50,089 bases of DNA from an uncultured Clostridium sp. GTDB taxonomy: Bacteria; Bacillota; Clostridia; TANB77; CAG-508. Positions 7,532 to 37,428 of this stretch are shown piece after piece. The DNA lies in the NCBI GenBank assembly GCA_964620415.1, contig CAZUHD010000002.1:1-50089 (forward strand), written 5' to 3'. Every line of letters begins with the position of its first letter. The first letter of the stretch is position 1. Both the position numbers and the translations under genes were made by a program. Below the pieces are notes generated by a model. That model was given only the letters and a program-made list of their open reading frames with translations, did no database searches and was not told where the DNA came from.

Positions 7532-7557
7532 TATGGAAAATAAAGGAGGAATCTATA

Positions 7558-8073: not shown

Positions 8074-8090
8074 GGAAAGGAAGAGAAATA

Positions 8091-8294: not shown

Positions 8295-8315
8295 AGTAAA
8301 TGGGGAAATATTATT

Positions 8316-9803: not shown

Positions 9804-9909
9804 AGAAGAATATTTTGTAGAATAGGAATTATTAATAATATATGATTTTAGGAAAAACATCTAATCAAATAGATTTTCCATACGAACAAATCTGGAAAGA
9901 GGTATTTAA

Positions 9910-10644: not shown

Positions 10645-10897
10645 AACTAAAAATAAAAGGAGATTAAAATTTTATAAAAAATAGTTTCCTTTTAAACTTT
10701 GATATTATATGATTTTTTTAGTGCAATATTATTGCAAGATTTAATATAATATTTGTAAGGATTAATATTTTTTATAATTTTTTTAAATATTTTTCAAGGT
10801 TTATCGGCATTACCATTATTTAATTCTTCTTGTATGTTTTTTATATCATATTCATAAAGACATTTAGATCTATATATTCCTTTTCTGTCAGCTTTTC

Positions 10898-11837: not shown

Positions 11838-12053
11838 AAAAATCCCTCCTTATATAGGCTTATTTTATTTTTGAACAATAGTCAATAAATTATAAAAAAA
11901 TGTAATGCAAATATATTTCTTGTAATATTGTTGTAATATTATATCATATCTTAAAAAAATATATTTTTTTCAATATAGAGTCCGTTTCTTTATTAATATT
12001 TTTTATAATTTTTTCGATTTACATTTTATTTTTATTACATTCATTTTATTTAG

Positions 12054-12902: not shown

Positions 12903-12918
12903 TCCTATAAATCAGCAA

Positions 12919-13374
12919 TTAATCTTTAATTAATTGCTTTATCCACGTTTTCTCCTTCAAGGAAATTTTACCATCTATTGAGCAAATTAGTAAACATACT
13001 GTAATTGCATCTTCTTTAAGTTCATCAGACAACTGTTCAAAAATATCAACCATAGTATTAACAATATTTTTTATTTCTTTTTTCTCTTTAAATGAATTTC
13101 TAACCGCTTTTTTACATTCTTCATAATTTACGTCTTCTCCAAAAAATACATGTAATAATGGATAAATTAAAAGATATTCTTCTTCTGATAATTTTCCGTC
13201 AGCAACAACTGAGCCAATAATAAAAGTACAAAATGCTAAATCTCCTTCAATACCATTATCTGTAATTAGTTTAAGTTTTGCTAATAATTTTACAGATTTA
13301 GCTTTCAAAATTGCAGTATAATCGCTACTGCTTAAATTATCAACTTCTTTACAAATCAAATCAAATTTTTTCAT
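12919..13374 (-). CDS. TerB-like (tellurite-resistance/DjlA N-terminal fold) protein
   Basis: Two copies of the pattern ..VVADGKLSEEEYLLI.. and ..ICSIDGKISLKEKTWIKQL... I place the start at the ATG at 13374, which follows GGAGG, not at the track start 13395. Confidence 0.55.
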   Translation of the reverse strand: MKKFDLICKEVDNLSSSDYTAILKAKSVKLLAKLKLITDNGIEGDLAFCTFIIGSVVADGKLSEEEYLLIYPLLHVFFGEDVNYEECKKAVRNSFKEKKEIKNIVNTMVDIFEQLSDELKEDAITVCLLICSIDGKISLKEKTWIKQLIKD

Positions 13375-13416
13375 ATATTCTTTTCCTCCAATCATATTTA
13401 AAACAATTTTGTTCTA

Positions 13417-14121
13417 TTAACCATTTAATAATTTTACTTCTTTAGTTTGTGAAGATTTGTTAACATCCATATCATGTTCCAATTCATCAATTAAGTTACT
13501 ACCTAATTTAGACATTCTTTCATCAAGCTTTCTTATCATTTTAGCTGCATCTTTTAATTCTTTTGAAATACTTTTAGGTAGTTCATCTGGATACTTGTAT
13601 TTTATTTTGTGTTCTAAACTAGCCCAAAAATCCATAGCAATTGTTCTTATTTGTATTTCCACCTTAACATCTGCTGTTCCACTTGCAAAACTAACTGGAA
13701 CTGATACAATTAAATGATAACTTGAATAACCACTTTCTTTTGGGTTTTTTATATAATCCTTTTTCTCAATAATATTAATTTCTTTTGACAAATCAAACAT
13801 CTCTACTATTTTATATATATCTGGTATAAATGAGCATACAATTCTTATTCCTGCAATATCATTTAAATTCACAAGCATACTATTGTATGTAACTGGATAA
13901 CCTTTTCTCTTTAATTTTTTTATAATACTTTCTGGCGTTTTAATTCTTGTTTTTATGTGTTCTATCGGATTATATTTATATAACATTTGAAATTCATCAC
14001 TAATAATTGATACTTTTGTTTCAATTTCTTTTAATGCAGAATTATACATAAGCATAATTTTTTTAAACTGTTGTTCCTTTTCTTTTATAAAGTTAACATC
14101 ATATATTTTATTTTCTTCCAT
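13417..14121 (-). CDS. Small alarmone synthetase (RelQ/RelP-type GTP pyrophosphokinase)
   Basis: 234 aa. DIAGIRIVCSF, SGYSSYHLIV and EIQIRTIAMDFWASLEHKIKYK form the RelA_SpoT synthetase core with no hydrolase domain. Confidence 0.85.
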   Translation of the reverse strand: MEENKIYDVNFIKEKEQQFKKIMLMYNSALKEIETKVSIISDEFQMLYKYNPIEHIKTRIKTPESIIKKLKRKGYPVTYNSMLVNLNDIAGIRIVCSFIPDIYKIVEMFDLSKEINIIEKKDYIKNPKESGYSSYHLIVSVPVSFASGTADVKVEIQIRTIAMDFWASLEHKIKYKYPDELPKSISKELKDAAKMIRKLDERMSKLGSNLIDELEHDMDVNKSSQTKEVKLLNG

Positions 14122-14156
14122 AATCTTAATTTACAAAATTAAATCTCCTTCCTATA

Positions 14157-16044
14157 TTATTTTGTCATAATTTCACACATCAAATTGCTTATTTCAGTTG
14201 GATTTTCAATTGTTAGCCCTTCAATAAGTCTTGCTCCGAGCATATAGAACTTTAGTATATTTTTTTAACATTTCTTTATCATTTTTATATAAATCCTTTA
14301 ATTTATTTGCTATTTCATGATTTTCATTTATTTCTAATACAGTTTGAGCTTTTATTCCTTGATTATTTGGCATTTGATTTAATGTTTTTTCCATTTCTAC
14401 TGAAACTGCTCCTTCAGAAGTTAAGCATACGGGATGATTTTTTAATCTGTGTGTAAACCTTATATCTTGTACTTCATCTTTGATTACTTCCTTCATTACA
14501 TTAAACATCTCTTTGCTATCCTCATTTGCTTTTTTTAATTCTTCTTTTTCCCCATCTGTATCTAAATCCAAATTATCACTCGAAACATTTTGGAATGTTT
14601 TTTCTTTATAATTTGCTAATGTTTGTAAAACAAATTCATCAATATTTTCTGTTAAATATAATATTTCCAATCCTTTATCTTTTAATAATTCTACCTGTGG
14701 CATCATATCTATTTTATCAATTGTTTCTCCACACGCATAATATATAACTTTTTGTTCATCTTTCATTCTTTGAGTATATTCTTGTAATGTTACTAATTTC
14801 TTTTCAGTCGAAGAATAGAAGAGTAACAAATCCTGTAGTTTATCCTTATTCATTCCATAATCGCTATATGTTCCATATTTTAATTGAGTTCCAAATATAT
14901 TGAAAAATTGCTCATATTTATCTCTTTCATTCTTTAACATATTTTCTAATTCTGTTCTAATTTTATTTTCAATATTTCTTGAAATTACTCTTAAACTTCT
15001 ATCATTTTGTAACATTTCTCTTGATATATTTAATGATAAATCTTCACTATCAACTAATCCTTTAACAAATCCAAAATAATCTGGTACTAATTCAGCACAT
15101 TTATCCATAATTAAAATACCATTACTATATAATTGTACCCCTTTTTCATAATCTTTGGTGTAATAATCATAAGGCAAATGTGAAGGAATATATATTAAAC
15201 TATCAAAGTTGTATTGTCCCTCAGCATGATTATGTATTACTTTTAAAGGTTTATCATAATCATGGAATTTATCCATATAAAAATTTTCATATTCTTCATC
15301 TTTAATTTCTTTCTTGTTTTTCTTCCATATTGGAGTCATAGAATTTACAATTTCAGTTTCTTTTATTGTTTCATATTCATTTTCAGTACCTTCTTTTTTC
15401 TTACTATGTTCTACTTCCATCTCAATTGGATATCTTATATAATCTGAATATGTTTTTATTATTTGCTCTATTCTATAAGTATCTAAAAATTCGCTATATT
15501 TTTCTTCTTCAGTATCATCTTTGATATAAAGTGTAATTTTTGTTCCTGTATCCTTTTTTTCACACTCTTCGATTGAATATCCTTCTACACCTTTTGATGT
15601 CCATTTATATGCTTTTTCAGAGTCAACTGACTTACTCTCAACAGTAACCAAATTACTTACCATAAATGATGAGTAAAAACCAACTCCAAATTGTCCTATA
15701 ATATCAATATCTTCTTTCTTTTCGTTTTTTTCTTTAAATTCTAAAGATCCGCTTTTTGCAATTGTTCCTAAATTTTTATCTAGTTCTTCTTCTGTCATTC
15801 CGCATCCGTTGTCCGTTATAGTTAAAGTTTTAGCGACTTTGTCTATATCAATTCTTATTTTTAAATCATCTTTATTTACATTTATGTTTTTATCAGTTAA
15901 TGAACGATAATACAATTTATCAATTGCATCACTCGCATTTGAAATTAATTCCCTTAAAAATATCTCTTTATTAGTATAAATTGAATTAATCATTAAACCT
16001 AATAATCTTTTTGATTCTGCTTTAAATTGTTTATTTCCCATCAT
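14157..16044 (-). CDS. htpG: Hsp90-family chaperone HtpG; full length needs a +1 shift at the in-frame CGG codon (14236-14238)
   Basis: N-terminal [15 protein letters not shown] and [13 protein letters not shown]. Track ORF 14221..16044 ends ...VLYARSKTY*. The +1 frame reads [26 protein letters not shown] (stop at 14157-14159), which is the canonical HtpG C-terminal helix. The total of 1888 nt is 629 codons plus 1 nt. Confidence 0.9.
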
Positions 16045-16552
16045 TATTCCCTCTTTCTATATAATTTTTTAATTTATCAGATTCATTTATAAATATATCT
16101 ATTTCTGAGTCAAAAATATCTGTTCTAATTTCAGATTTTGACTTTTTTTCAAGTATTTCTCTTAGTATCTCAAATGCTTCAATTGTAAAATGTCTATATT
16201 CATAACTATCATTTATATCTACACAATCTAATGATTCAATTAATTCAAAAGACTTATCTAAAGCTCCAAGCAGTTCCTCTAATAATTCTTGAGGTATTTG
16301 TGAATTATTACTTTTATAATATATACCTAAATACATTCTATACTTAGAATATATTTTGTTAAAATCTATATCTATATTTTGTTGTTCTATATATTTTTTT
16401 ACAAAGTAAAGGTAATATGCTTTAATAAATATATATGTTATTGATTGATCTATGTTTTGAAACTCTTTAAACCTATCTAAAACCTCATAAATAGTATCTT
16501 CTGTCATATCAAATATATCACTTGAAAAATTATCTATATCTATTTCCTTCAT
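16031..16552 (-). CDS. Hypothetical acidic protein, overlaps the htpG start by 14 nt
   Basis: 173-aa ORF translationally coupled between the FtsH-like gene and htpG. No recognised family. Confidence 0.5.
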
Positions 16553-16570
16553 AGATTAACCTCCTCTCAC

Positions 16571-17752
16571 TTATCTTCTCAATTTTCTTAAATTGATATT
16601 ACAATTTGTTTTCTTTCCTGCATTTATTATATTATCCATAGAAATAGTATCTCTTTTTTCTGAAATTGCTTCCATTGCAGCTTCGTTTAATACAGTTTCA
16701 ACACCTGAACAGCTTAATGTTTCAAAACTTTCAGCTAGCTTTTCTTTATCTATATCCTCGGCTAATTTTTTCTTTTTAGTATATAAATCTATTAATTTCA
16801 TTCTTGTTTCAAAATCTGGGTTTGAAATATTATATCTTAAATCAAATCTTCCTGGTCTGATTAATGCAGAATCCAAAGAATTATATGAATTTGTCGCTGC
16901 GATAACTAATATTCCATCTTGTGTTTCGAATCCATCCATTTCATTAAGCATCGCAGTTACAATTCTATTGTTTTCCTTGTCTACTCCTGTACCTGCATAA
17001 TTTCTTCTTTCTCCTATACTATCAAATTCATCTATGAAAATTATACATGGCTTATGGCTTTTAGCTTTTTTAAATAATTGTTTAATTTTTCTAGCTCCCA
17101 TTGACATCATGGCACTTTGAAAATCAGCACCTTTAGTAGCAATAAAATTAACATTCATTTCTTCTGCTAGTGCCTTTGCAAATAATGTTTTACCATTACC
17201 AGGATTTCCTTCAAATATTATTCCTTTTGTTTGTCTTATACCTATATTCTTGTATTTTTCTGGATTTTTTAAAATATCAACTATTTGTCTCATATCTTTT
17301 TTTAGTTCATCCATTCCAGCTATGTCATCAAATGTTACTTTCGTATGTCTAATTACTTTAAATTTTTTTTGATTCATTTCATACATTTTATATAAAACAA
17401 ATATTATTATTCCAAAGAAAAATAAATAAAATAATATATCAAAAATAAATGCAATATTTTCCTTGTCAGAATTAACCTCAACATTAATTCCATGTAGTAA
17501 TAGATCTCTTTCTAGTCCATCATAATTTGGATTATCTGTATAATATAAGTTTTCATCATTGTTTTTAGAAAATTTTACTTTGTTATCTTCTATCAAAACT
17601 GATTGGATATTATTATTTTCAATTTCGTTATTAAATTCTTTATAGCTAATATATTGTAAGTCTTTGCTTTTAAAAACATTAAAAAGTACTATTGCTAATA
17701 ATATTATTATAATAATTAACATTACAATTATTTTTTTTGTTTTTGATTTCAT
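16571..17752 (-). CDS. FtsH-like membrane AAA+ ATPase lacking the M41 protease domain
   Basis: 393 aa in the order TM, FtsH_ext-like segment, TM, AAA module. Walker A GNPGNGKT, Walker B IIFIDEFD, and SRH ATNSYNSLDSALIRPGRFD. The protein ends after the AAA lid and has no HEXXH. Confidence 0.8.
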   Translation of the reverse strand: MKSKTKKIIVMLIIIIILLAIVLFNVFKSKDLQYISYKEFNNEIENNNIQSVLIEDNKVKFSKNNDENLYYTDNPNYDGLERDLLLHGINVEVNSDKENIAFIFDILFYLFFFGIIIFVLYKMYEMNQKKFKVIRHTKVTFDDIAGMDELKKDMRQIVDILKNPEKYKNIGIRQTKGIIFEGNPGNGKTLFAKALAEEMNVNFIATKGADFQSAMMSMGARKIKQLFKKAKSHKPCIIFIDEFDSIGERRNYAGTGVDKENNRIVTAMLNEMDGFETQDGILVIAATNSYNSLDSALIRPGRFDLRYNISNPDFETRMKLIDLYTKKKKLAEDIDKEKLAESFETLSCSGVETVLNEAAMEAISEKRDTISMDNIINAGKKTNCNINLRKLRR

Positions 17753-17797
17753 TATATAACACCTTCTTGATATTTAATTTTTATTTGCATTGTATTT

Positions 17798-18493
17798 CTA
17801 ATCATTTCTACTATTTCTATTACCTCTTACTAAAATAGACAATAATCTAACAAATATATTTATGAAATCTAAATATAAATCCATTGCACCATATATATAT
17901 AATTTTTCTGTATCATAGCTAATATAATTTTGCATATTTTGTATTCTATTCATATCATAAGCTGTTAGCCCACAAAATACGGCTAGCATTACCCAATCTA
18001 AAACTATGTCTATCACTCTATTTCCTATAAATAAATTAATAATAGACATTATAAGTCCTACTATTAAAGCTACTGAAAATACTGTACTTAATTTAGTCAT
18101 ATCTCTATTTGTTGTTTTTCCATATAATGCAAGTCCACCAAATAGTAATGCAGTTGTTAAAAATGCTAATGATATTGTATTAATATTATAGCATGCAAAA
18201 ATTGTCCCCATAGTTAAACCATTTATTAAAGCATAAACATAAAATAAAACTGTTACTGCTGTTGGTGATAATTTTCTAAACATAAATGAAAAAACTACTA
18301 CTACAGCAACTTCTACTACTGCTAAAATAGCATATGAAAACCCAGAATATAACATCATAAATAGTCCTGATTTATATGTGATATATGATGTTATCGCAGT
18401 AACTAGTAATCCTAGAAACATTCTTGAAAAAGTTTTAACCATTGTTTCATTTGTATTATACATACAATTATTATAATTTCTTATTCCTTCCAT
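17798..18493 (-). CDS. Bax inhibitor-1/YccA-family membrane protein
   Basis: 231 aa with 7 hydrophobic helices and a charged tail. FMRKVY-like SRMFLGLLVTA start and YLDFINIFVRLLSIL end. Confidence 0.75.
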   Translation of the reverse strand: MEGIRNYNNCMYNTNETMVKTFSRMFLGLLVTAITSYITYKSGLFMMLYSGFSYAILAVVEVAVVVVFSFMFRKLSPTAVTVLFYVYALINGLTMGTIFACYNINTISLAFLTTALLFGGLALYGKTTNRDMTKLSTVFSVALIVGLIMSIINLFIGNRVIDIVLDWVMLAVFCGLTAYDMNRIQNMQNYISYDTEKLYIYGAMDLYLDFINIFVRLLSILVRGNRNSRND

Positions 18494-18592
18494 CTTTATT
18501 TAATCCTCCTATCTTATAATAATTAAATTATAATCTTAATATAAAATTTTATTAAGAGTAATTTATCATTTTAAATTTTTTTGTCAATATTT

Positions 18593-19723
18593 TTAACCGC
18601 CTTGATTAATAATAATTTTACCATTATTATTTTTTTCTTTCAATTTTTTATCTATAAATTTATTAAACATCTTATAAATAACTGATGCTGTTGGAACACC
18701 AAGTAGCATACCAACAATTCCAAATAGTCCTCCTCCAACTGTAACTGCAAGTAGCACTAGAAAACTAGGTAATCCAATATAATTTCCTACAACTTTCGGG
18801 TATATCAGTTTTCCTTCTACCTGTTGCATAATTAAAAATATAACTATAAATGTGATTACTTTTTTGATATTAGCTGATGCAATTAGCACACAACCAATTG
18901 CCGCTCCTAAAAAAGCTCCAACTATTGGAACTAAAGCTGTTACCCCAATAAATATACTTATTGGCACAGCATATGGTATTTTTAAAATTAGCATACTAAT
19001 CAAACATAGCAGTCCTAATATAGCCGAATCTAAGCATTGTGCAGTTATAAATTTTCTAAAAGTCACATTTATTTGACGCATTACATAACGGACTTTAGTT
19101 ACTATTCTTTTACCAAAAAAAGCATGTAATATTCTTATACTTCGTTTTTTTATTCTCTCTTTATCAACTAATATATATATTGCTAAAATAATAACTACTA
19201 TTAAATTTGTAAAATATCCTAATACATTACCCACAGCTGAAATTGAAAAAGTAACTATTTGCGGAATTTGATTTTTTAAATTTTCTAAATTTATATCTGC
19301 TTCACTAATTGTATTTTTTAAATCAGGGAATGTATTTTCTAATTGTGCCAATATTTCTTTTAATTTTTCATTATAATAAGGTATATTATCAATTAATAAT
19401 CTTACGATATTGGCTAATTCTGGAAATATTAATTTTACTATAAGAAATAAAATTAACACAATAACTGAAATAGCAAATATGATGGATATATACCTAGTTA
19501 TTTTGTTTTTCTTGTTTTTTAAAACTTTCTTTTCAAAAAAAGACATAGGAATATTTAATAAAAAAGCAAGACAAGAACCTAATATAATTGGAGATAAAAC
19601 ACTTAACAATTTACTTATTAAATTTCCAATAACTGATAAATTATTTATACACCAAAATACAATAACTGTAATTAGTAAAATTAAAGCTATTTTCTTGTAT
19701 TTCGCCTTTTCCTCGTTAAACAT
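18593..19723 (-). CDS. AI-2E family transporter (PerM/YdiK-like)
   Basis: Polytopic protein with a C-terminal GLPSFLVLLAVTVGGGLFGIVGMLLGVP block. I place the start at ATG 19723 (MFNEEKAKYKK), which follows GGAGGAG. The 32-codon track extension to 19819 lacks an RBS and looks non-coding. Confidence 0.8.
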   Translation of the reverse strand: MFNEEKAKYKKIALILLITVIVFWCINNLSVIGNLISKLLSVLSPIILGSCLAFLLNIPMSFFEKKVLKNKKNKITRYISIIFAISVIVLILFLIVKLIFPELANIVRLLIDNIPYYNEKLKEILAQLENTFPDLKNTISEADINLENLKNQIPQIVTFSISAVGNVLGYFTNLIVVIILAIYILVDKERIKKRSIRILHAFFGKRIVTKVRYVMRQINVTFRKFITAQCLDSAILGLLCLISMLILKIPYAVPISIFIGVTALVPIVGAFLGAAIGCVLIASANIKKVITFIVIFLIMQQVEGKLIYPKVVGNYIGLPSFLVLLAVTVGGGLFGIVGMLLGVPTASVIYKMFNKFIDKKLKEKNNNGKIIINQGG

Positions 19724-19797
19724 TTTTCTCCTCCATTTTTGTTTTAAAATATAATAGTATCTTTTATAATATTTGTCAATTCTGTTTTTATGCCTAT

Positions 19798-19836
19798 TAT
19801 AACAAATAAAGCAAATCAAAAGTAGACTTGCTTTAT
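19798..19836 (-). terminator. Candidate intrinsic terminator closing the T4SS-like locus
   Basis: Minus-strand RNA reads AUAAAGCAA-13 nt-UUGCUUUAU followed by UUGUU. Stem arms are plus 19806-19814 and 19828-19836. It sits just upstream of a TATAAT for the AI-2E gene. Confidence 0.45.
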
Positions 19837-27569: not shown

Positions 27570-30183
27570 TATGACTATTTCCTTCTACTCTATTATTTTT
27601 GTCATTATTTTTTCTTATATCTTTTAATATACTGTCAACATCTACTGTTCTAAGAAAGTTGAAAACTGCTCCTTCTGTTGAATCATTTAGATTATTATCT
27701 CCTAAATTTGCATAAGGATTTGGATTTGGCGAATATCTCCTTCTTTCATCTCTCTTATTTCTCTGCTTTTTCTCCTTATTTTTTGATTTGTCAAGTTTTT
27801 CTAATAATTTTTTTATTTTTTCATATAAATCATCTCCGAGAATTTGTCTTGTTCCTTCTGGATCTTTATCAATTGCTTTTTGAATTACTAGTGCTTGTTC
27901 TGCTAATTTTGTATCTATTGCACTATCTGTTAATACTTTTCTTAGTTTATTTTTCTCTTCCTTGGTAATATTTTGTGAACTATTTATTGAGTTTAATTTT
28001 TCATTAATTGCAAATTTTTCATCTTGTTGTAAAACATCTTTCTTTTTCAAAAAAAGCGTTGAAGCAGCGATCTTTAATCTTGTTCCCATATCAATTGCAG
28101 ATCCTGATGATTCTCTTACATTCTTTATTGCCTCTCGTCTTGCTGCTGCTTCTGAAATTCCTTTTTCTTTTTTCTTCTCATCGTCATCCTGTTTTTCAAC
28201 AGTTCTAAGACGTTTTTCAGCAAGTTGGCTCACGTTTTCTTTACCACTTGTAATTGTTGGATTTTCATAATTTTGTGTCATTGTTTTTCTCTTTTCTAGC
28301 AATTTTTTAGCCATCATAATCATGTTTGCAAAAGACTCAGGATCTACATCTGGATTCGATTCTACCATTGTTCTCATCATTCCTCTAAACTCTGGATCGT
28401 TCAATTGATGAATTGTATCATCTGAAGCCATAGCTGCACTTTCTTGTAATCCTGTTTCGGAACTAGATTGGACACCAATACTTTCATTTTTTAATAAGTC
28501 ATTTAATTCCTTTAATTTTGCATACATTCCCATAGTAAGACCTGCACCAAAAGCCCTCGTCCTCAAATCCGAGAAACGTCTATGTTCTAAAAATTCTGGC
28601 AAAGCTCTAGGCATACGTCTATATACACCAAAATTTCCAGCATTTTTAAGGTAATGGTAAATATTTTCTTTAGCAAAAAATCTATTTCCTTGTTCTCCTA
28701 ATAAATCTATTTCTGGTGGTCTAATTTTTCTTCTATTTCCACTTCTAAGTATAGTCTCTGGGTTTGAATCTATCTGTTTTATTACATCATTATAAAAGTT
28801 GCTGTCTAATCTACGTACATTTAATGTTAGTTTTTTAGGATTATTAAGTTTGTTGACATGTGAATAATTTTCACCTAATGCTGACTCTGTAGACACATTA
28901 ATGGCATTTACACTCTCTCCTTGTTCATTTAATTCTGCATCACTTGCTTCCAGTGCATTTAATGTTGTACCTTCTGGTGCATTAAGACTATTATTTATAT
29001 CTCCCCCTCGTATATTTGAGCCTTCTATTGCATTAAGACTATTATTTACATCTTCTCCTCGTATATTTAATGTCGTACCTTCTGGTGCATTAAGACTATT
29101 ATTTATATCTCCTTCTCGTATATTTAATGTCGTACCTTCTGGTGCATTAAGACTATTATTTACATCTTCTCCTCGTATATTTAATGTCGTACCTTTTGAT
29201 TCATCAAGACTATTATTTATATCTCCTCCTCGTATATTTGAGCCTTCTATTGCATTAAGACTATTATTTACATCTTCTCCTCGTATATTTAATGTCGTAC
29301 CTTCTGGTGCATTAAGACTATTATTTATATCTCCTCCTCGTATATTTGAGCCTTCTATTGCATCAAGACTATTATTTACATCTCCTTCTCGTATATTTAA
29401 TGTTGTACCTTTTGGTAAATTACTATTTATATTCTCCCCTCGTATATTTAATGTTGTACCTTCTGGTGCATTAAGACTATTATTTATATCTCCCCCTCGT
29501 ATATTTGAGCCTCCAATTGCATTAAGACTATTATTTACATCTCCTTCTAGTGCATTTGGTTCTGCTGGTGCATTAAGTCTGTTTATATTTTTTCCATGTA
29601 AATTTAGCTTTGCATTGAGTTTATTTACATTTAAACCAAGTGTTGAATCTTGAGGTCTATTACTATTATTTTCTAGTGCTAACGTAAATCTCTTTCCTCC
29701 ATTTATTTCGCCATTATCAAAAGTTCCTAACTCCATTGGACCAGATATTTTTATTTTTTGTCCTTTATTAATAAAGTTTTCCAAGTTTTGTCTCTCTTGA
29801 TTTAAATAATTTGCATTCAATATATTAACATCTGCAGCAGTTCCAATGTTTTTATCTACAGCAATAGAGCCATTTAGACCTATTTCTCCCTCTATTCTAA
29901 TTTTGCTAGCATTAAAGTTTTCTCCCTTATAGTCCTTGTTCTGTTCAGTTGAAACATTTTCTTGTTGTTTAGCAATCTCCTCATTTGGATCAAGTTTTGG
30001 CACCTCACTTGGTTGAGCTTTATTAGCACTTCCACTTCCTAAAAGTGTCGTTTTATCTTGTGTATGTGTTCCTGTTATATTTTGTATCATAACTTTAGTT
30101 ATAGCACTAGCCGCCGACATAGTTACCTTAATAATTCCTATTGCCGTTCCTAAATATAAAAATGCTATTATAAATAAATTCAT
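27562..30183 (-). CDS. 873-aa N-terminally anchored protein with about 14 tandem 17/19-aa repeats and a K/E-rich helical C-terminus
   Basis: N-terminal hydrophobic helix. Repeats alternate as DINNSLNAPEGTTLNIRGE (19 aa) and DVNNSLNAIEGSNIRGG (17 aa). No recognised family. Confidence 0.7.
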   Translation of the reverse strand: MNLFIIAFLYLGTAIGIIKVTMSAASAITKVMIQNITGTHTQDKTTLLGSGSANKAQPSEVPKLDPNEEIAKQQENVSTEQNKDYKGENFNASKIRIEGEIGLNGSIAVDKNIGTAADVNILNANYLNQERQNLENFINKGQKIKISGPMELGTFDNGEINGGKRFTLALENNSNRPQDSTLGLNVNKLNAKLNLHGKNINRLNAPAEPNALEGDVNNSLNAIGGSNIRGGDINNSLNAPEGTTLNIRGENINSNLPKGTTLNIREGDVNNSLDAIEGSNIRGGDINNSLNAPEGTTLNIRGEDVNNSLNAIEGSNIRGGDINNSLDESKGTTLNIRGEDVNNSLNAPEGTTLNIREGDINNSLNAPEGTTLNIRGEDVNNSLNAIEGSNIRGGDINNSLNAPEGTTLNALEASDAELNEQGESVNAINVSTESALGENYSHVNKLNNPKKLTLNVRRLDSNFYNDVIKQIDSNPETILRSGNRRKIRPPEIDLLGEQGNRFFAKENIYHYLKNAGNFGVYRRMPRALPEFLEHRRFSDLRTRAFGAGLTMGMYAKLKELNDLLKNESIGVQSSSETGLQESAAMASDDTIHQLNDPEFRGMMRTMVESNPDVDPESFANMIMMAKKLLEKRKTMTQNYENPTITSGKENVSQLAEKRLRTVEKQDDDEKKKEKGISEAAARREAIKNVRESSGSAIDMGTRLKIAASTLFLKKKDVLQQDEKFAINEKLNSINSSQNITKEEKNKLRKVLTDSAIDTKLAEQALVIQKAIDKDPEGTRQILGDDLYEKIKKLLEKLDKSKNKEKKQRNKRDERRRYSPNPNPYANLGDNNLNDSTEGAVFNFLRTVDVDSILKDIRKNNDKNNRVEGNSHNV
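28948..29565. repeat. Coding tandem repeat array of 51- and 57-nt units
   Basis: Near-identical units are visible in the plus-strand sequence, for example TAAGACTATTATTTACATCTTCTCCTCGTATATTTAATGTCGTACCTTCTGGTGCAT. The + ORF 28901..29653 is a shadow of this array. Confidence 0.85.
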
Positions 30184-30196: not shown

Positions 30197-31954
30197 TTAT
30201 ACAATAACTTCAAGCATTATCCTTGCCACTATTGCAAGTACTACCTGAATTAAAGAAATTACGAAATATGTCATAAACCATTGTTTAAATGGTACTAAAC
30301 TCGCATCTTGTGATTTGAATATATATACAAGGACGAGCCAGAACCCCATAATTGAAGCAAACATCAATATGAAAGATCTTACAAACATTCCTACTGCTAA
30401 AATACAATTAGCTAATGCCATTAAAAGATATATTACACCATATGCTAATTTTTTTAAACATAAATAAATATTATCAAGTCCTGCCATATATCTAACATAT
30501 CCTGTTGGTGTCGTGCTAAATGAATATAAATTTTCAACCGTAACTCTTATTGGTCCTTCATATTTATTTCCACCAGTTTCTGATGCAGTATCCTGGAGTA
30601 TTACTTCTGATAAATAAAGACACATTGCTTCTAAAAAAAGTATACTAAATAATAAAATAAGTGATATTACCAGTTTTCTTAATGCCACCCTATGTTTATT
30701 TTGTTCATTTATATTTCCACTAATTGATGCTCTAGATATTCCAACACCATGCCATATTGTTGCTGTAAATATTAAACCTGCTGCTATATACATTAGTCCA
30801 TGTATTATCGAGGCTACGAAATTAACTACGCCATTAAATATTCCTCGTTCTTCGCCTTCTTGTCTTTCAAAGAAATTAGTTTTAATTGAATCCACTTTAT
30901 TTGCTGCTAATGTATATATATCTGTTGCTATCACTGGTATAGGTGTATTTTCTGTAAAATTATGATTTTCTCCATCTATATCTGCTTGTCCTATAAACTT
31001 ACTCACTTTTGTATTTCCACTACTGTCAGTTGAACCTGAGCCACCTTCTGATATTCTTTTAAAATTTAAATAACTATTTATATTTAATGGATCATCAAAT
31101 GGATTATCATATTGGGGTATAATCGTACCTACTGCTTCTGTTTTAACTGTACCTTTCCCATCATTAGTAGTTCCTTCTGCATTTTCTATTTCCGTTGGTG
31201 TTTGCATTAATTCTATTTTTCCAAGTGTCCATGTTTGTGCAAAATTTGCAAGTTCTTGTAATCCATCTCCAAGAGATATTATCCAATTAGCCAAAGCTGT
31301 TATTGCATTTTCTTTTGCATGTGATAAAAAGTCTTTTATTTCCTTAGTTTTATCTTTTGCTTGTGACAATAATGAATCATCTGGATCAGCATATCCTGAA
31401 GCAGAATCATTTCCTAAATCTAAGTCATTTATTTTGTCAATATCTCCCCCAGTAGCAATTACATTAACTTTCCATCTATACCTTCCTGGTTCTTTTACCT
31501 CTTCAACATTCATTGCAATATCCCACATAGCTCCATCTTGTAATCCAGATATAGTATTTCCTTTATCATCAAATAATTTTATCCCCTCTTCATATCCAAA
31601 TAACGATCTTAATTGATCCATACTATATTTTTTTTTAACAAGTTCCATCCATTTTATCCACTTATTTCCTAACTTAACATTCCACATTGAACCAGATAAT
31701 GGCTCTTTTATTGTAACTGTTGTTTTTATATTTATTTTAGACTTAAATTCTTCGGCTTCATAGCCAAACCATTCATTAAAATTCTTCAAAACATCTTTTT
31801 TACTATAATAAGCATTTGTATCTTCACTAATTATCGTATTAATTAAATCTAAATCTCCATCATTTAATGTTATCCATGCTCCATAGCTTTTTCCACATCC
31901 TAACATTATAAATAATATTACAAATATTAAAATTACATATATTCTTTTTTTCAC
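30197..31954 (-). CDS. VirB6-like candidate, paralog 4: signal peptide, variable ectodomain, conserved C-terminal polytopic domain
   Basis: 585 aa. Shares IPVIATDIYTLAANKVD, NFFE, VASIIHGLMYIAAGL, EGPIRV and FSTTPTGYVRYM blocks plus 5-6 C-terminal TM helices with its three neighbours. Confidence 0.55.
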   Translation of the reverse strand: MKKRIYVILIFVILFIMLGCGKSYGAWITLNDGDLDLINTIISEDTNAYYSKKDVLKNFNEWFGYEAEEFKSKINIKTTVTIKEPLSGSMWNVKLGNKWIKWMELVKKKYSMDQLRSLFGYEEGIKLFDDKGNTISGLQDGAMWDIAMNVEEVKEPGRYRWKVNVIATGGDIDKINDLDLGNDSASGYADPDDSLLSQAKDKTKEIKDFLSHAKENAITALANWIISLGDGLQELANFAQTWTLGKIELMQTPTEIENAEGTTNDGKGTVKTEAVGTIIPQYDNPFDDPLNINSYLNFKRISEGGSGSTDSSGNTKVSKFIGQADIDGENHNFTENTPIPVIATDIYTLAANKVDSIKTNFFERQEGEERGIFNGVVNFVASIIHGLMYIAAGLIFTATIWHGVGISRASISGNINEQNKHRVALRKLVISLILLFSILFLEAMCLYLSEVILQDTASETGGNKYEGPIRVTVENLYSFSTTPTGYVRYMAGLDNIYLCLKKLAYGVIYLLMALANCILAVGMFVRSFILMFASIMGFWLVLVYIFKSQDASLVPFKQWFMTYFVISLIQVVLAIVARIMLEVIV

Positions 31955-31991
31955 ATACTGTTCCTCCTTGCTTAATATTTATAATACAATT

Positions 31992-33770
31992 TTACTTTAT
32001 GCCAATATCTATTATTATTCTTACAACTCCAGCCAAAGCAACCTGTATCAATGTAAATACTAAATATGTTGTCATACATGATTTATATTGTCTTAATGCT
32101 ACCTCTTCATCTTTACAGAAAAGATAATATACTACTATAAAGAAGGAAATCGCTGCAAGCCCCATCATTATAATCATTCTTACAAACATAGCAATCAAAA
32201 ATAAAGCATTTGCAATTACTGTAATTGTATACCATAAAAGATACATTCCCTTTTTCCCTACAAGTGCATCATTATTTATTTCTGACATATATCTAAAATA
32301 TCCTGTTGGTGTTGTACTAAAACTATAACCTGTTTCTCCTTCTTGCATTTCCACATAAACTCTTATTGGACCTTCAAGCGAAGTGTCTTCTGAATCTATA
32401 AAATATCCTAAAAACATCTCATTAGAATATATACATAATGCTTCAAATAATATAGTTCCAATTAATAATGTAAAACCTTTAAATACTCTTTGCGTTCGTT
32501 CTCTACTTTTCATTTCTGCATTAACTGAATTTTGAGTTATAGAACCTTTGACTAAAATTACGCCATTATATATAAGTGCTACCATCATACATCCAATTGC
32601 TACATACATTGTTGCATGCACAATTGAAGCTATTATATTTCTTAATGATAACCATAAATCAGATTTATTCCCTGTTTTTTCAAAAAAGTTAGCATCTATA
32701 TAGCTTACTTTATTACTTGCTAAAGTAAATAAATCTGTACTAATAAAAGGTATTTCAGTTTCATCTTTTGAAAATTCATAATTTACTGTTTCTGTTGAGC
32801 CATCTATTGGATCTGTTGTTGTGATTCCTGCTGGTATAACTATATATTTTTGATTTGGTTTATGTTCCCCTTCTCCACCTTTTTTATACATAACATAATT
32901 ATTTACATTTCCTGCTAATGCATCTACTGTTCCTTGTTCTTCTGCTGATATTTCTTCATTTTTTATTTTTTCTAAAGCAGCTGGTGTATATCCTACACTA
33001 CCCCACCCTGATTGAAGAGAATTAACCATCATTTGTATTAAATCTGGGACTAATCTGAGAATATTAAGCAATAATTTCCATAATCCTGCTAATCCGTCAC
33101 TAGTTTCTACTGATGTTTCTTCCTCTTCTGTTTTAGGAGGATTTCCAATATCTACTACCGTTCCCGTGCCACTTATTTCATCTTTCGATGTCCATCCTGA
33201 ATATACATCTGTAACTTCAATTTTATATGTTTTTTTATTTCCTTCTTCTTGACCTGTATAAGGAACAGTAGCAACTATCGTAATATCCCACTGAGGAGAA
33301 GATTCTAATTCTGCTTCACTTAAGGGTCCACATAGTCTATCTCGTATTTGTTCAAAGGAAGTATATTTCACACCATCGTTTCCGCTACTAACTAACCCAA
33401 CATTCATGTTATCAACATGATGGTTTCCTATTATTACATTATAAACATTTGCTCCAGATACTTTACTACATGTAACTGTTGTGTGTAATACTATTTTAGT
33501 TGTTAATGGATTTGCACTTTCAATTCCATCAGTATAAGCAGTTTGTCTATTAATATATCCGCCTATATATACATTCTGCATATATTCATTTATTATATTT
33601 ACTATGTTTCCTTTCTTATTTTTTAATTCTTCCTCTTTTGTATAATCAAATTGTAATAAAGTCCATCTATCTGATGTGCCTAGTCCTCCATCTGCAAATG
33701 AATCATTTTTTAATCCCAATATAGAAAGAAGCAATACTATTATAAAAATTTTATATTTAAATGTTTTCAA
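31992..33770 (-). CDS. VirB6-like candidate, paralog 3
   Basis: 592 aa. IPFISTDLFTLASNKVSYIDANFFE, IASIVHATMYVAIG, EGPIRVYV and FSTTPTGYFRYM. Confidence 0.55.
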   Translation of the reverse strand: MKTFKYKIFIIVLLLSILGLKNDSFADGGLGTSDRWTLLQFDYTKEEELKNKKGNIVNIINEYMQNVYIGGYINRQTAYTDGIESANPLTTKIVLHTTVTCSKVSGANVYNVIIGNHHVDNMNVGLVSSGNDGVKYTSFEQIRDRLCGPLSEAELESSPQWDITIVATVPYTGQEEGNKKTYKIEVTDVYSGWTSKDEISGTGTVVDIGNPPKTEEEETSVETSDGLAGLWKLLLNILRLVPDLIQMMVNSLQSGWGSVGYTPAALEKIKNEEISAEEQGTVDALAGNVNNYVMYKKGGEGEHKPNQKYIVIPAGITTTDPIDGSTETVNYEFSKDETEIPFISTDLFTLASNKVSYIDANFFEKTGNKSDLWLSLRNIIASIVHATMYVAIGCMMVALIYNGVILVKGSITQNSVNAEMKSRERTQRVFKGFTLLIGTILFEALCIYSNEMFLGYFIDSEDTSLEGPIRVYVEMQEGETGYSFSTTPTGYFRYMSEINNDALVGKKGMYLLWYTITVIANALFLIAMFVRMIIMMGLAAISFFIVVYYLFCKDEEVALRQYKSCMTTYLVFTLIQVALAGVVRIIIDIGIK

Positions 33771-33791
33771 ATATTGTTCCTCCTATCTTTT

Positions 33792-35633
33792 TTAATTCAC
33801 CTTTATTCCTTCTAACAGAAATCTTGCAATTATTGCTACAACTACCTGTATCAATGATAAACCTGCAAATGATGTAATCCATTTCCTATATTCCATTGTA
33901 TTTGCAGTGCTAGATTGTAAAACAAATTTCAGTACTAACCAAAAATGGAGTATTGCAAGTGCCATCATAACTATCATCCTTCCTACCATACCAATTGCAC
34001 ATAATAAATTTGATATTGAAAGTATTAAATATGCTCCAACAAACAATGCTTTTGTTTGATATAATTCTACATTAGTTATATCTGCCATATATCTAAAATA
34101 CCCTGTTGGTGTTGTACTAAAACTAGTTTCGCCATTTTTAGTTTTTGTTATAATTTTTATGGGACCTTCATATGTATCTTGCATTGCAACTTCACCTAAT
34201 ATCATATCACTTGCATACAAACAAATCGCTTCTAGAAAAATTGTTCCTACTAGCATTATTAGTCCTGTTACAAATTTTTCCATGCCCTTTATTTTTTTTG
34301 CTTTTTCTTGTGGTGTTTGATAAGTACGTGACACAATTTGTATTCCATAAATTATAATCCCAGTTGTTAGAAATGCAATTGTAATATACATAAGTCCATG
34401 AATAACAGAAGCCACAAAATTTCTTATAGTTAACCAAACTTCATTCTCATTTCCCGTTTTTACTAGGAAATTTGCTTTTGCTAAATCAACTTTATTTGCT
34501 GCTATTGTATATAAATCTACTGCTATTACTGGTATTTCAGTTTCTTTAACATATCCATATTTATAAAAATAGTTTTTTTCTGTATCATCAATTACAAGTT
34601 CTTTTTGTCCAATATAGTTATTTTTATTATTTAGATCTACATATCCGTCCAATTTAGTATGATCAGCTTCTGTTTCAGTACCTGTCGACTTTTTAGTTCC
34701 AGTTATTTGTTCCCTGGTATATGTTACATCCCAGTGTTGCCAACCTGTTTGGAATAAATTAGCCATACTTTGGAAGAGATCACCAATGCCCTTTATAATG
34801 TCAAGACATATAGTTAAAATAGTTTTTACTGGACTGTCATACATCTGTTCACAAAATAACTTGAATTCGTCTGTTATATTGTCCGCAGCATATTGACCAG
34901 CTGCCTCAAATGGGTTGGAAGGAACTCCTGGTACTCCTTGAACGTCCCCTCCATTTTGTTCGTTTCCGTTTTGTTCGTTTCCCCCATTCGGATTATCTTC
35001 TCCATTTGAATCATTCGGCTGATTGTTCATTAAATCATTTATAAAATCTTTTGCTTGTTCTCCAGTTAATACTTGTGTAGCCTTGACTCTATAAACATCT
35101 TGAGGAAAAAAACTTGCGCCATCAGTACATTTTATTACAATATCCCATGATAATTCATTTCCCTGTTTTATATATTCTTCAATTTCTTCCCTACTATTAA
35201 AATGTACAGTTTCTCCATTTTGATTTTTTAGATCCAGACTATCTTCAAAGCCATAATCTTTTTCTAAATTTCGCCACGTTTCACTTTTATTCGTAATTGG
35301 AAACATATCTGGAAGTACATAATCATCTTTATTATTATTTTCATTATAATTTCCATCGCCCAAAGTAACCTGTACCTTATTGTTCTCACTATTACCTTTA
35401 ATTGTAGCTTCTGTAATAACAGTTATATCCCCTGTAACTTGATCTACTCTTACATCACCATATCTTTTTCTTAAATGTTCTGTTATTTGATGATCGTTTG
35501 TATCCTCACCTTGAATAAAAGTTGTTTGGTATAGAACTATATCGCTGTCTATTTCAACTCCTAAGCTTGTATTAATGCCTATTAATATAAATAATATTAC
35601 AAATATTAAAATTTTATTTATTCGTTTTTTCAC
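33792..35633 (-). CDS. VirB6-like candidate, paralog 2
   Basis: 613 aa. IPVIAVDLYTIAANKVDLAKANF, VASVIHGLMYITIA, EGPIKI and FSTTPTGYFRYM. Has a Gly/Asn/Gln-rich linker (NPNGGNEQNGNEQNGG). Confidence 0.55.
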   Translation of the reverse strand: MKKRINKILIFVILFILIGINTSLGVEIDSDIVLYQTTFIQGEDTNDHQITEHLRKRYGDVRVDQVTGDITVITEATIKGNSENNKVQVTLGDGNYNENNNKDDYVLPDMFPITNKSETWRNLEKDYGFEDSLDLKNQNGETVHFNSREEIEEYIKQGNELSWDIVIKCTDGASFFPQDVYRVKATQVLTGEQAKDFINDLMNNQPNDSNGEDNPNGGNEQNGNEQNGGDVQGVPGVPSNPFEAAGQYAADNITDEFKLFCEQMYDSPVKTILTICLDIIKGIGDLFQSMANLFQTGWQHWDVTYTREQITGTKKSTGTETEADHTKLDGYVDLNNKNNYIGQKELVIDDTEKNYFYKYGYVKETEIPVIAVDLYTIAANKVDLAKANFLVKTGNENEVWLTIRNFVASVIHGLMYITIAFLTTGIIIYGIQIVSRTYQTPQEKAKKIKGMEKFVTGLIMLVGTIFLEAICLYASDMILGEVAMQDTYEGPIKIITKTKNGETSFSTTPTGYFRYMADITNVELYQTKALFVGAYLILSISNLLCAIGMVGRMIVMMALAILHFWLVLKFVLQSSTANTMEYRKWITSFAGLSLIQVVVAIIARFLLEGIKVN

Positions 35634-35676
35634 ATATAGTTCCTCCTTACTTAATATTTATAATAATTTTATATTT

Positions 35677-37428
35677 CTAGTGAAATATAAGCGATACTAT
35701 TCTTTCAATAAGTACAAGCAAAATTGGCATCCATACTAATATATTATATATCTTAAACCAATTTGCAAAATGAAAAACGCCTTTTGCTTCTCCTTCTGAT
35801 TCTACATTAGATGTATATATTACAGTCAATGGTGCAAGTACTATAAAAAGTGCAATTGCAAACATTCTTATAATCATAATTACAAACCAAATCATACTAA
35901 TTATAGCTATCACACAATAAAATAGTGAGTATAATAATTTATACAACCCATTTGAGGTTAATGTTAAAGTTCTAACTGCTCCAACTATAGTTGTATTAAA
36001 TGAAAATCCTTCATTAACTACTAATCTTAGAGGATAATATACATCTTCTCCAAGAGATACCATAGAAAGAACTTCTTTATACAAATACAATATAAATATA
36101 ATTATAAAATATATAAAAACTAACAGTAGCACGTATTTAAGTAATGCATTTATTTTTTTTCTTGCATTTTTTGCTTTCTCTGGTCTTTGTGAATATGTTG
36201 CTATAACAAGCATTATACTTCTGAAAATAAGTATGGTTAAAATTAATGCAGCAGTGAAATACATCATTATTTTGCTACCATTTTTAACTACACTTCTAAC
36301 AAGTCCAAATAGTTTATTTGAATTTGTATTATCTTTGCTAAAAAAATCTATATCACATATATTTATTTTTGTTCTTGATAAAACAAATAAATCTGATGGA
36401 ATAATTGGTACGCTTGTAAAATTTTCAAATGTATTTGCATAATTTCCTGCTTGATTTACAAGCTTCATCGGCACTGTAAAAGTATATATTCCTCCCTTTT
36501 TGTTATTTTCTACTTGCAGTTGTGTGTTATCTTCTGGTTGCACCTCTGTATTATCATTCTTCGCATTATTTTTATTTTTCTTCTTTTCTTCATATATTTC
36601 TAATTGCAATGCTTCTTGTAAATCTGGTCTTGCATTTATATCCTCTTTTGTATAGATAGGAAATCCTTCTGGCATTTCCTCCAAACTTATGTTATATACT
36701 TCAGCTGTTAACAATTGTTCTATCAAATCTCCTAAAAATAGTAATGCTGTCGAAAGCACATTTACTAAAAGATTTCCTTCTGCTGTTTTCTTTATATTTG
36801 CTGGGAATTTGCCTGTGTCAGATACTAATATTTCTTTATCTGTAAATTTTTCAACCTTGTTTAATATACCTGCTGCCCCAGCTTCTTCATTAGTTCCTAC
36901 ATATGCAAAAATATATTGTGAATTATTTGTATCGCCACCTTGTTCATGGATAGTAGTACTACTAACAGCCCCTATTATTTTTCCCTTATAAATATTTTTG
37001 TCATTAGAGTAACGTTGATCAAATTGGAAATATATAGTTTCTCCTATTTTAAAACAATACATATCTTCTGTTTCTTCCGTTAATCCTAAAAGGGCAACAT
37101 AAGTTTCTTCTTTTTCTTTAAACTCATACCAACCATAATCTTCATTTCTTACTAATTGAAGGCTACTATATTTACTATCAATCGCTCCCCCAAGTTGTCC
37201 TGCACCTTGACTAGTATAAAATGGTGCTATTTTCCATGATTTCTCATATGAATCAATACTTCGTTTAGTTGTATCTGTAACTGCATCCCCTTCTGTTTCA
37301 TTATCTGCTAAACTGTAGTTTGTATATACATTAAGACTAGGGAATAAAAATATAAATAGTATAAAACATATGAATATTTTTTTTAAATTTAACGAATTTT
37401 TCATACATTTTTTATTCCCTTTCTTCAT
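35677..37428 (-). CDS. VirB6-like candidate, paralog 1 (most divergent)
   Basis: VPIIPSDLFVLSRTKINICDIDFF and GFSFNTTIVGAVRTL are degenerate versions of the family blocks, and the C-terminal TM bundle is present. I place the start at ATG 37428, one nt after the VirB4 stop. The exact start is uncertain (track: 37449). Confidence 0.5.
   Translation of the reverse strand: MKKGNKKCMKNSLNLKKIFICFILFIFLFPSLNVYTNYSLADNETEGDAVTDTTKRSIDSYEKSWKIAPFYTSQGAGQLGGAIDSKYSSLQLVRNEDYGWYEFKEKEETYVALLGLTEETEDMYCFKIGETIYFQFDQRYSNDKNIYKGKIIGAVSSTTIHEQGGDTNNSQYIFAYVGTNEEAGAAGILNKVEKFTDKEILVSDTGKFPANIKKTAEGNLLVNVLSTALLFLGDLIEQLLTAEVYNISLEEMPEGFPIYTKEDINARPDLQEALQLEIYEEKKKNKNNAKNDNTEVQPEDNTQLQVENNKKGGIYTFTVPMKLVNQAGNYANTFENFTSVPIIPSDLFVLSRTKINICDIDFFSKDNTNSNKLFGLVRSVVKNGSKIMMYFTAALILTILIFRSIMLVIATYSQRPEKAKNARKKINALLKYVLLLVFIYFIIIFILYLYKEVLSMVSLGEDVYYPLRLVVNEGFSFNTTIVGAVRTLTLTSNGLYKLLYSLFYCVIAIISMIWFVIMIIRMFAIALFIVLAPLTVIYTSNVESEGEAKGVFHFANWFKIYNILVWMPILLVLIERIVSLIFH

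Follow-up and report, generated by a model that had tools for sequence, protein, structure and literature searches.

Four tandem membrane proteins with a putative VirB6-like core and N-terminal ectodomains in a chromosomal type IV secretion locus of gut Clostridia

Introduction

Polytopic VirB6 proteins of type IV secretion systems (T4SSs) represent the closest described counterparts of the proteins reported here. ConG of ICEBs1 and Orf15 of Tn916 are extended VirB6 proteins of the MPF-FA class (MPF, mating-pair formation) with 700–900 residues, each present in a single copy in an element that also encodes a relaxase and a coupling protein. TrwI, the VirB6 protein of R388, forms a pentameric platform for VirB5 and VirB2 (PMC12857230), and only the first two VirB6 helices in this system are membrane anchors, with the pilins recruited beside them (PMC12857230). 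The VirB6 pentamer is seen as the platform of the pilus, and Gram-positive VirB2-like pilins have been modelled on pentamers of PrgH (bioRxiv 10.64898/2025.12.18.695078; PMC12857230). Until very recently, monoderm T4SSs were thought to be without VirB2 pili, and a 2025 review regarded Patescibacteria as the unique exception. Here, we describe four tandem genes, A–D, on a contig of an uncultured Clostridium sp. (GenBank assembly GCA_964620415.1, contig CAZUHD010000002.1; the whole contig of 50,089 bp is referred to as the window). The genes follow a VirB4-like gene, and their products are probably N-terminally extended, VirB6-like subunits of a chromosomal T4SS.

Results

Gene array and conserved core

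The window is a complete contig with a G+C content of ~27%, and nearly all of its genes are on the minus strand. A, B, C, and D are four consecutive minus-strand open reading frames (ORFs) separated by intergenic gaps of 13–43 nt. Paralog A (35677–37428), the most diverged copy, has 583 residues from its ATG or 590 residues from an upstream TTG. Its ATG, at 37428, lies one base after the stop codon of the VirB4-like gene (37430–37432), to which A is predicted to be translationally coupled. Paralogs B (33792–35633; 613 residues), C (31992–33770; 592 residues), and D (30197–31954; 585 residues) start with GTG, TTG, and GTG, respectively, each of which is preceded at a distance of 7–8 nt by an AGGAGG ribosome-binding site. 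Because the gaps are short and no terminator-like site was seen on the minus strand between 27000 and 41097, the four genes look like a single operon. The 5' ends of D (31879–31997) and B (35558–35676) show 80% nucleotide identity over 119 nt. This stretch spans the ribosome-binding site, the start codon, and the signal peptide, and its identity is far above that of the remaining ectodomain-coding regions, suggesting a shared duplication boundary or a local gene conversion.

The C-terminal ~250 residues of the four proteins are homologous. In this part, B, C, and D share 39–42% identity (BLASTP, 1e-54 to 1e-63), and A is 26–28% identical to the other three (1e-16 to 1e-18). We refer to this part as the core. 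In D, it comprises residues 333–585 (30200–30958, minus strand), and the equivalent minus-strand segments of C, B, and A are 31995–32771, 33795–34553, and 35680–36429, respectively. The motifs IPVIxxD, NFF/NFL, (V/I)AS(I/V)(I/V)H, EGPI(R/K)(V/I), and FSTTPTGY(F/V)RYM are all present in B, C, and D and are degenerate in A. The core is ordered as IPVIxxD, a pilin-like hairpin (H1-H2), a β-hairpin carrying EGPIRV and FSTTPTGY, and two long C-terminal helices with R...GP...W. A Kyte-Doolittle scan detected five hydrophobic segments in the core, whereas AlphaFold predicted four long helices and the β-hairpin, so that the core falls within the range of four to six hydrophobic helices expected from TrbL/VirB6 polytopy. 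The core-only AlphaFold model, based on 106 sequences, has a predicted local distance difference test (pLDDT) score of 91 and a predicted template-modelling (pTM) score of 0.84, and shows two long helices, the β-hairpin, a short helix, a 50-residue helix, and a final helix in this order. A first-pass annotation of the same DNA had described four tandem paralogs directly after VirB4, with the first copy as the most diverged, a polytopic conserved C-terminus, and the motifs listed above. These descriptions all agree with the co-oriented ORFs, the junction of A with the VirB4 stop codon, the BLASTP comparisons of the cores, the degenerate motifs of A, and the predicted helices. The count of four is correct for A–D but missed a fifth, diverged paralog at 19898–21776, described below.

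Relationship of the core to VirB6

Neither Pfam nor NCBIfam contains a model for the A–D family, and none of the four proteins has a match above threshold. We scanned 106 relatives one by one against Pfam. T4SS_pilin matched 13 of the 106 (best 1e-5), TrbL matched 10 (best 1e-4), and TrbL_4 matched one; no other Pfam family was found in more than three relatives. No transporter family recurs among the 106 relatives, and a transporter identity was rejected on this ground.

Using hhalign, we compared the core with a PrgH alignment of 31 members (E = 1e-3). When seven divergent plasmid VirB6 proteins (from Lactococcus, Lacticaseibacillus, Arthrobacter, and Cutibacterium) were added to that alignment to give a broader Gram-positive VirB6 set, E was 6e-4 to 2e-3, and the single TrwI sequence gave E = 0.014, compared to 0.19–0.36 for the reversed controls. 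Broadening the PrgH set shifted the hhalign probability little (15% and 30% versus 4.5% and 22%). The alignments with PrgH, the Gram-positive set, and TrwI are all located in the last third of the core (columns 155–246). The same helices are paired in every case, M..R......L...GP......W with IFLR.....KA.AP, and the GP...F..W stretch of the core also aligns with TrwI of R388.

Ranked by template-modelling score (TM-score) over the whole PDB, the top entries for the core model are chains G, J, and F of 7O3V, which are TrwI/VirB6 in the R388 stalk (0.48, 0.44, and 0.35, respectively), and the best unrelated entry reached at most 0.33. The TM-score between the core model and TrwI is 0.48/0.45 over 221 columns. 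In the Foldseek search of the core model against the PDB, nothing was found at E < 0.8. Each of these links between the core and VirB6 is weak, and all of them are in agreement.

The pilin-like hairpin

The first hairpin of the core, H1-H2, resembles VirB2-type pilins. Pfam T4SS_pilin matches residues 380–441 of D with E = 0.002. At E < 0.01, a hidden Markov model (HMM) built from the eight pilins of the window matched H1-H2 in 23 of the 152 cores of the family (best 1e-5). The register never varied, and no reversed core sequence was matched. The loop between H1 and H2 is rich in K and R, like that of VirB2. VirB2/TrbC pilins (PF04956 and PF18895) are small proteins of ~70–150 residues comprising a signal peptide and one hydrophobic helix hairpin, the loop of which is short and charged. 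A–D, with 583–613 residues, are not pilins in this sense, and only their H1-H2 segment resembles one. By analogy, a pilin-like H1-H2 would fit the R388 picture, in which the VirB6 membrane anchors stand next to the recruited pilins.

Ectodomains and strain-level variation

Each of the four proteins opens with a signal-like segment of n-h-c type ending in SYG, SLG, SFA, or SLA, as the first-pass annotation had claimed in describing a signal or transmembrane segment at the start of all four. Its further description of the ectodomains as unrelated applies only to A, the N-terminus of which has no relation to those of B, C, and D detectable by BLASTP. In contrast, the N-terminal regions of B and D are 26% identical over 185 residues (3.6e-10), and those of B and C (1e-4) and of C and D (1e-3) are also related; the detectable likeness covers the N-terminal 100–185 residues. 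In D, the model indicates a distal β-rich ectodomain (residues ~29–177; 31424–31870, minus strand), the part that proves hypervariable when strains are compared for their B- and C-type orthologs. It is followed by a long helix (residues ~193–241; 31232–31378, minus strand) with the motif GDxxQxxANxxQT. The helix, of ~50 residues, stands shortly before the core, and its conservation extends to the whole family. All four proteins share this layout, in which a Sec-type signal, a variable β-rich distal domain, the long helix, and a linker precede the core. VirB5, a protein of the pilus tip or stalk, is a secreted helical bundle related to TraC and TrwJ. We found no Pfam, PDB-sequence, or Foldseek match for the ectodomains, and from their position they may have a VirB5-like role.

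We compared two near-identical strains, represented by contig L013 and by L001. L013 is ~100% identical to the corresponding 4.7 kb of L001, and most 100-nt windows are identical. The differences are confined to two patches in the distal β-domain, residues ~33–133 of the B-type protein and residues ~30–215 of the C-type protein, and the D-type copy is identical in the two loci. In the C-type gene, the synonymous (dS) and nonsynonymous (dN) divergences are 0.31 and 0.34 inside the variable patch (dN/dS 1.1), versus 0.009 and 0.004 outside it (dN/dS 0.52). Because dS is raised as much as dN, the comparison indicates that the patches are probably divergent alleles imported by recombination and not products of local point mutation. 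Such patchy distal variation is typical of surface domains that recognize a variable partner, and favours a partner-recognition role as judged from the sequences. A diversity-generating retroelement is an unlikely source of the patches, since dS is raised equally with dN and no reverse transcriptase was called in the precomputed Pfam annotations of L001 or in the window, although a template repeat was not looked for.

Distribution, copy number, and orthology

In an exhaustive profile search, 1338 clusters (50% identity) had E-values below 1e-3, and 174 of them were below 1e-30. A second, word-indexed search with the core profile returned only two matches, as hydrophobic words saturate its candidate list. 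Among the GTDB representative genomes, six loci were found, all in metagenome-assembled genomes (MAGs) from the rabbit and human gut, and they are labelled as uncultured Clostridia, Clostridiales, Clostridium sp., or Bacilli. Synteny is shared by six independent MAG or metagenome loci, in which pilins, a PrgI-like protein, a TraC-like protein, and VirB4 are followed by three or four family copies; this statement covers every locus long enough to show it. In L001, L004–L007, L009, and L010, the family is likewise found beside VirB3/VirB4 as the only polytopic candidate. All loci examined have the family in one and the same place, with VirB4 on one side and the wall hydrolases on the other.

When a neighbour-joining tree was built from the cores, the type A copies, which come first after VirB4, clustered in a single clade that spans all loci. 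Each of B, C, and D was paired 1:1 with its positional counterpart in L005, the closest relative, in which the gene order is kept (orthologs at 5385–7112, 7168–8988 [P0003], and 8987–10765, respectively). The identities between the orthologs of the window and L005 are 43–53% in the core and 28–37% in the ectodomain.

A separate observation concerns the type A gene. The same 1-nt frameshift in helix 2 is present on two independent contigs, L007 (3267–5007) and L004 (8207–9968), where …AVLII/RM… stands against FGCVYFAM… and both ORFs stay open. On one side of the frameshift are the ectodomain, helix 1, and the first part of helix 2, and on the other the remainder of helix 2, the β-hairpin, and the VirB6-like C-terminal helices. 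The frameshift is either inherited or a programmed frameshift or split.

A fifth paralog with an enzyme-like insert

The core HMM also detected a fifth-type member downstream of the arrays (E = 1e-9 to 4e-19). In the window, this diverged family member (19898–21776, minus strand) has an SGNH/GDSL-like insert between H2 and the β-hairpin, and its C-terminal module aligns with the A–D core at an hhalign probability of 97.5% (E = 8e-12). The fifth paralog of L001 matches Pfam TrbL at 7.5e-4. Among the paralogs, only the fifth has a central insert, whereas the extension of A–D is N-terminal, behind the signal peptide. The insert, in a presumed extracellular loop, differs between loci. The intact, 581-residue protein of L005 (17287–19029) has an insert with a GDSR motif, that of L006 (17368–19824) contains a Beta-lactamase2 domain (5e-33) and a CHAP-like segment, and that of L009 (18025–19728) is CHAP/NlpC-like. 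As far as the sequences tell, the fifth paralogs would in effect be VirB6-VirB1 fusions with interchangeable cell-wall-type enzymes.

The fifth paralog of the window is split by a 4-nt tandem duplication (AATG/AATG) into two overlapping ORFs, 20568–21776 and 19898–20575 (402 and 225 residues). They are collinear with the intact L005 protein, with the junction at ~20568–20575. Either an assembly error or a true frameshift, with translation resuming at the ATG created by the duplication, could account for the split.

T4SS genes and flanks of the array

The genes upstream of A, all on the minus strand, encode further T4SS components. The VirB4-like ATPase (37430–39373) has its best NCBIfam matches in the CD1110 family (7.6e-58) and the Mbov_0397 family (1.1e-56), neither of which reaches its curated cut-off, and it also matches Pfam P-loop_TraG. 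Next to it is a bitopic TrsD/TraC-like protein (39318–40562) with a weak TrsD match, the orthologs of which in L001 and L004 carry PF26593 TraC-like. A PrgI/VirB3-like protein with two hydrophobic helices (40555–40911) matches Pfam PrgI with E = 0.004, below the threshold. These genes are preceded by eight tandem VirB2/TrbC-like pilin genes (41055–44848; Pfam TrbC). Six of the eight pilins pass the Pfam TrbC threshold (1e-8 to 6e-12), and the two promoter-proximal genes match weakly. The hydrophobic hairpins of pilins 2–6 are near-identical and their N-terminal mature regions are divergent; the two promoter-proximal genes are far more diverged. Such pilin arrays have been highlighted so far mainly for Patescibacteria. 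The only polytopic proteins of the locus are A–D and one further gene. The T4SS of this locus is probably related to the Firmicutes/Actinobacteria/Tenericutes/Archaea MPF class (MPF-FATA).

The genes 3' of D in the same direction (22479–30183, minus strand) encode an 873-residue repeat protein, a weakly NlpC/P60-like protein, two bitopic paralogs of 484 and 523 residues, and an M23 peptidase. Within the ORF of the 873-residue protein (27562–30183, minus strand), a unit of 51/57 nt is repeated in tandem at least 10 times at 28957–29614, giving units of 17–19 residues such as NNSLNAPEGTTLNIRGEDV; the product is a probable repetitive surface protein of the A–D operon. An exact 678-nt direct repeat (23772–24449 and 25441–26118) corresponds to the C-terminal ~216 residues of the 523- and 484-residue bitopic paralogs and 29 nt downstream. 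In contrast to this identical C-terminal part, the N-terminal halves of the two paralogs show ~60% nucleotide identity. The repeat reflects either a very recent gene conversion or an assembly collapse.

The flanks of the window (1–19800 and 46500–50089) contain ordinary chromosomal genes, encoding TatD, ACPS, HtpG, and AI-2E as well as an FtsH-like AAA protein, a small RelA/SpoT synthetase, and a class II tRNA synthetase. The G+C content of the T4SS block is slightly above that of the rest (0.29–0.32 versus 0.21–0.27). Of the plausibly coding ORFs of at least 100 residues in the window, none was recognized as a relaxase, coupling protein, or integrase gene. Owing to the housekeeping flanks and the absence of these three genes, the machine looks like a resident chromosomal system. 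BLAST searches of plasmid and phage collections with the region and with paralog C gave no match, ruling out a known plasmid or phage element as the identity of the locus. Neither the Rfam scan nor the tRNA scan of the window gave a match.

Discussion

Proposed role of A–D

We propose, with moderate confidence, that a VirB2-type pilus is built here by a chromosomal, monoderm-type T4SS and that A–D are its VirB6-like subunits with an N-terminal extension. In the mechanism we propose, A–D would be exported by Sec and anchored in the membrane by the pilin-like first hairpin. The cores would assemble above VirB4 into a central platform, probably pentameric, as in R388 and in the pCF10 model, and the first hairpin would template the polymerization of the VirB2-like pilins on it. 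The N-terminal ectodomains may project through the wall in place of the VirB5 of diderms and contact the cell wall, the surface of a target cell, or some variable partner, thereby giving contact specificity. A–D are presumed to be co-expressed, non-redundant subunits because of their conserved order, 1:1 orthology, and independent ribosome-binding sites, and they may form a hetero-oligomer that includes the fifth, enzyme-bearing paralog. The first-pass annotation had suggested either a hetero-oligomeric channel or alternative modules for a receptor or substrate; the same-order orthologs in L005 favour non-redundant subunits expressed together, and the replacement of the distal domain between strains favours partner recognition.

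Several results weigh against this interpretation. The curated threshold of Pfam TrbL/VirB6 (PF04610) is 25.9 bits, and PrgH as a positive control scored 29.2 bits (1e-6), but none of the paralogs A–D of the window matched TrbL at E < 0.1 and none matched the NCBIfam VirB6 models. The hhalign probabilities are low (4–30%), and PDB sequence searches with profiles of 10 and 106 sequences gave noise only. The Foldseek E-values of the core model to TrwI are 2.1–3.5 with a probability of at most 0.47, which is not significant. The full-length model of D has a mediocre pLDDT of 63.6, and Foldseek found nothing for it at E ≤ 0.001 in the PDB or BFVD (best 0.08 and 0.05, respectively). In addition, the copy number varies among related loci, L006 having three copies and the fifth-type gene, and the type A copies of L004 and L007 are frameshifted; therefore, a fixed hetero-pentamer is not general.

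Since no line is significant alone and no protein of the window reaches the Pfam threshold, membership of A–D in the TrbL/VirB6 family is unproven. That they work like VirB6 is nevertheless likely. The first-pass annotation had assigned them to the VirB6 slot from position and topology. The assignment now has more than position behind it, namely the recurrent sub-threshold TrbL matches, the hhalign alignments, and the TM-scores to TrwI. The Foldseek comparison of the core that it had proposed gave R388 TrwI as the best entry by TM-score but without significant E-values.

Alternative explanations

A–D could instead be adhesins at the tip of the pilus or minor pilins, which would enter the pilus via their VirB2-like hairpin and travel to its outer end, where they would make up a tip complex of VirB5 type with the variable β-domains on display, leaving the fifth, enzyme-bearing paralog as the true, stationary VirB6. 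Matches of H1-H2 to pilin profiles are as frequent as those of the C-terminal part to TrbL, the distal domains are exchanged between strains as would be expected of an adhesin or receptor-binding tip, no VirB5 homolog was found in the locus, and a separate fifth paralog exists to take the stationary role. However, none of the VirB6-like C-terminal helices is missing from A–D, which in this respect equal the fifth member, and four long hydrophobic helices occur in no known pilus subunit. The fifth member, moreover, is not nearer to PrgH than A–D and is split by a frameshift in the window. We regard this explanation as unlikely. Still less probable, in our judgement, is that the paralogs are mutually exclusive specificity modules, with one paralog per machine or cell, serving antigenic or host-range variation as proposed for the arrays of Rickettsiales and Bartonella. 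The diverged, strain-variable ectodomains are in line with this idea, as is the fact that the pilins, too, have been multiplied, to eight copies, which would suit a variation strategy of the kind discussed for pilin arrays (PMC12102498). Yet the genes form a single operon in which each has a strong ribosome-binding site, no invertible element, internal terminator, or separate promoter was found above chance, and the stable same-order orthologs in L005 together with the deep, conserved type A clade argue for fixed, distinct roles.

A further explanation, that A–D belong to an unrelated membrane family (transporter, polymerase, or flippase) merely travelling with T4SS genes, draws on the lack of a significant match to curated VirB6 models and on isolated weak transporter-like matches in single members. 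It appears very improbable, as no transporter family recurs in the 106 relatives, no PDB transporter surpasses TrwI by TM-score, the place of the genes between VirB4 and the wall hydrolases never changes in the loci examined, and the helix hairpin of the core is pilin-like. We retain the VirB6-like reading of A–D. A bolder form of it, which we offer as speculation and think rather doubtful as a whole, is that A–D and the fifth paralog form a five-membered hetero-oligomeric VirB6 ring, the fused ectodomains of which take the place of VirB5; the ring would act as stalk or tip in a contact-dependent, non-conjugative pilus machine of reduced-GC gut Clostridia/Bacilli lineages. Such a machine would be the Firmicutes counterpart or source of the essential T4SS of Patescibacteria, and exchange of the distal domains would set its partner specificity.

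Significance

The absence of a relaxase and a coupling protein, the chromosomal site, and the pilin array match the T4SS of Patescibacteria (PMC12102498) and by this analogy suggest a non-conjugative, contact-dependent function. In the literature searched, we came across neither arrays of N-terminally extended VirB6-like proteins nor arrays of VirB2 pilins for Clostridia or Bacilli. New with respect to this literature is the conserved array of Sec-exported, N-terminally extended, VirB6-like proteins, the distal domains of which are exchanged between otherwise identical strains. If A–D are the pilus platform, the array is a natural experiment on pilus nucleation by VirB6, on the replacement of VirB5 in monoderms, and on target choice. 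A model for the family, which exceeds 1300 clusters at 50% identity, would improve the annotation of T4SSs in metagenomes.

Comparison with known systems

PrgH of pCF10, the MPF-FATA VirB6 (PF04610), is similar to A–D in module size, with 266 residues versus a core of ~250, and in its place beside PrgI/VirB3 and a CD1110-type VirB4. The helices with R...(A/G)P...W align with E ~1e-3, better than the reversed controls. However, PrgH has no ectodomain, is single-copy, and is encoded upstream of VirB3/VirB4, whereas A–D follow VirB4, carry a secreted N-terminal extension of 330–360 residues and the EGPIRV/FSTTPTGY β-hairpin, and occur in four (plus one) copies. TrwI of R388 (PDB 7O3V) shares the long-helix architecture and gives the best PDB TM-scores. 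In contrast to A–D, it belongs to a diderm MPF-T system, lacks an N-terminal ectodomain, has its VirB5 partner as a separate protein, and is similar in sequence only over the short GP..F..W stretch. ConG and Orf15 are larger-than-minimal VirB6 proteins encoded directly 3' of VirB4 and followed by wall hydrolases, as are A–D (see PMC12857230). They differ in that their extra domains lie elsewhere in the protein, and in being single-copy genes of conjugative elements with a relaxase and a coupling protein.

In Rickettsiales (RvhB6a–e; VirB6-1 to VirB6-4 of Anaplasma), tandem VirB6-like genes with large hydrophilic extensions and amplified VirB2 are found, and the T4SS is not used for plasmid conjugation (PMC2653234, PMC7648143). 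These systems are, however, diderm and P-type, with central or C-terminal and often huge extensions, whereas A–D are monoderm proteins with a Sec-exported, N-terminal extension. The extended-VirB6 subfamily (RvhB6 of Rickettsiales; ConG and Orf15 of MPF-FA) is defined by a large hydrophilic domain central or C-terminal to the hydrophobic helices, and that of A–D is N-terminal to them. The parallel to Rickettsiales drawn in the first-pass annotation is accordingly valid as an analogy only, because the MPF class is a different one and the extension is at the opposite end of the protein.

The T4SS of Patescibacteria (candidate phyla radiation) differs in host, the relatives of the window being labelled as Clostridia or Bacilli MAGs, and a VirB6 array is described in neither PMC12102498 nor PMC12857230. 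It shares its gene set with the present locus. It comprises 2–11 divergent VirB2-like pilins, PrgI/VirB3, TrsD, a FATA-type VirB4, and VirB6 (PMC12102498, PMC12857230), and it is chromosomal and usually without a relaxase (PMC12102498, PMC12857230). The genomes labelled as gut Clostridia or Bacilli show a Patescibacteria-like architecture, with pilin arrays at a chromosomal site and no relaxase.

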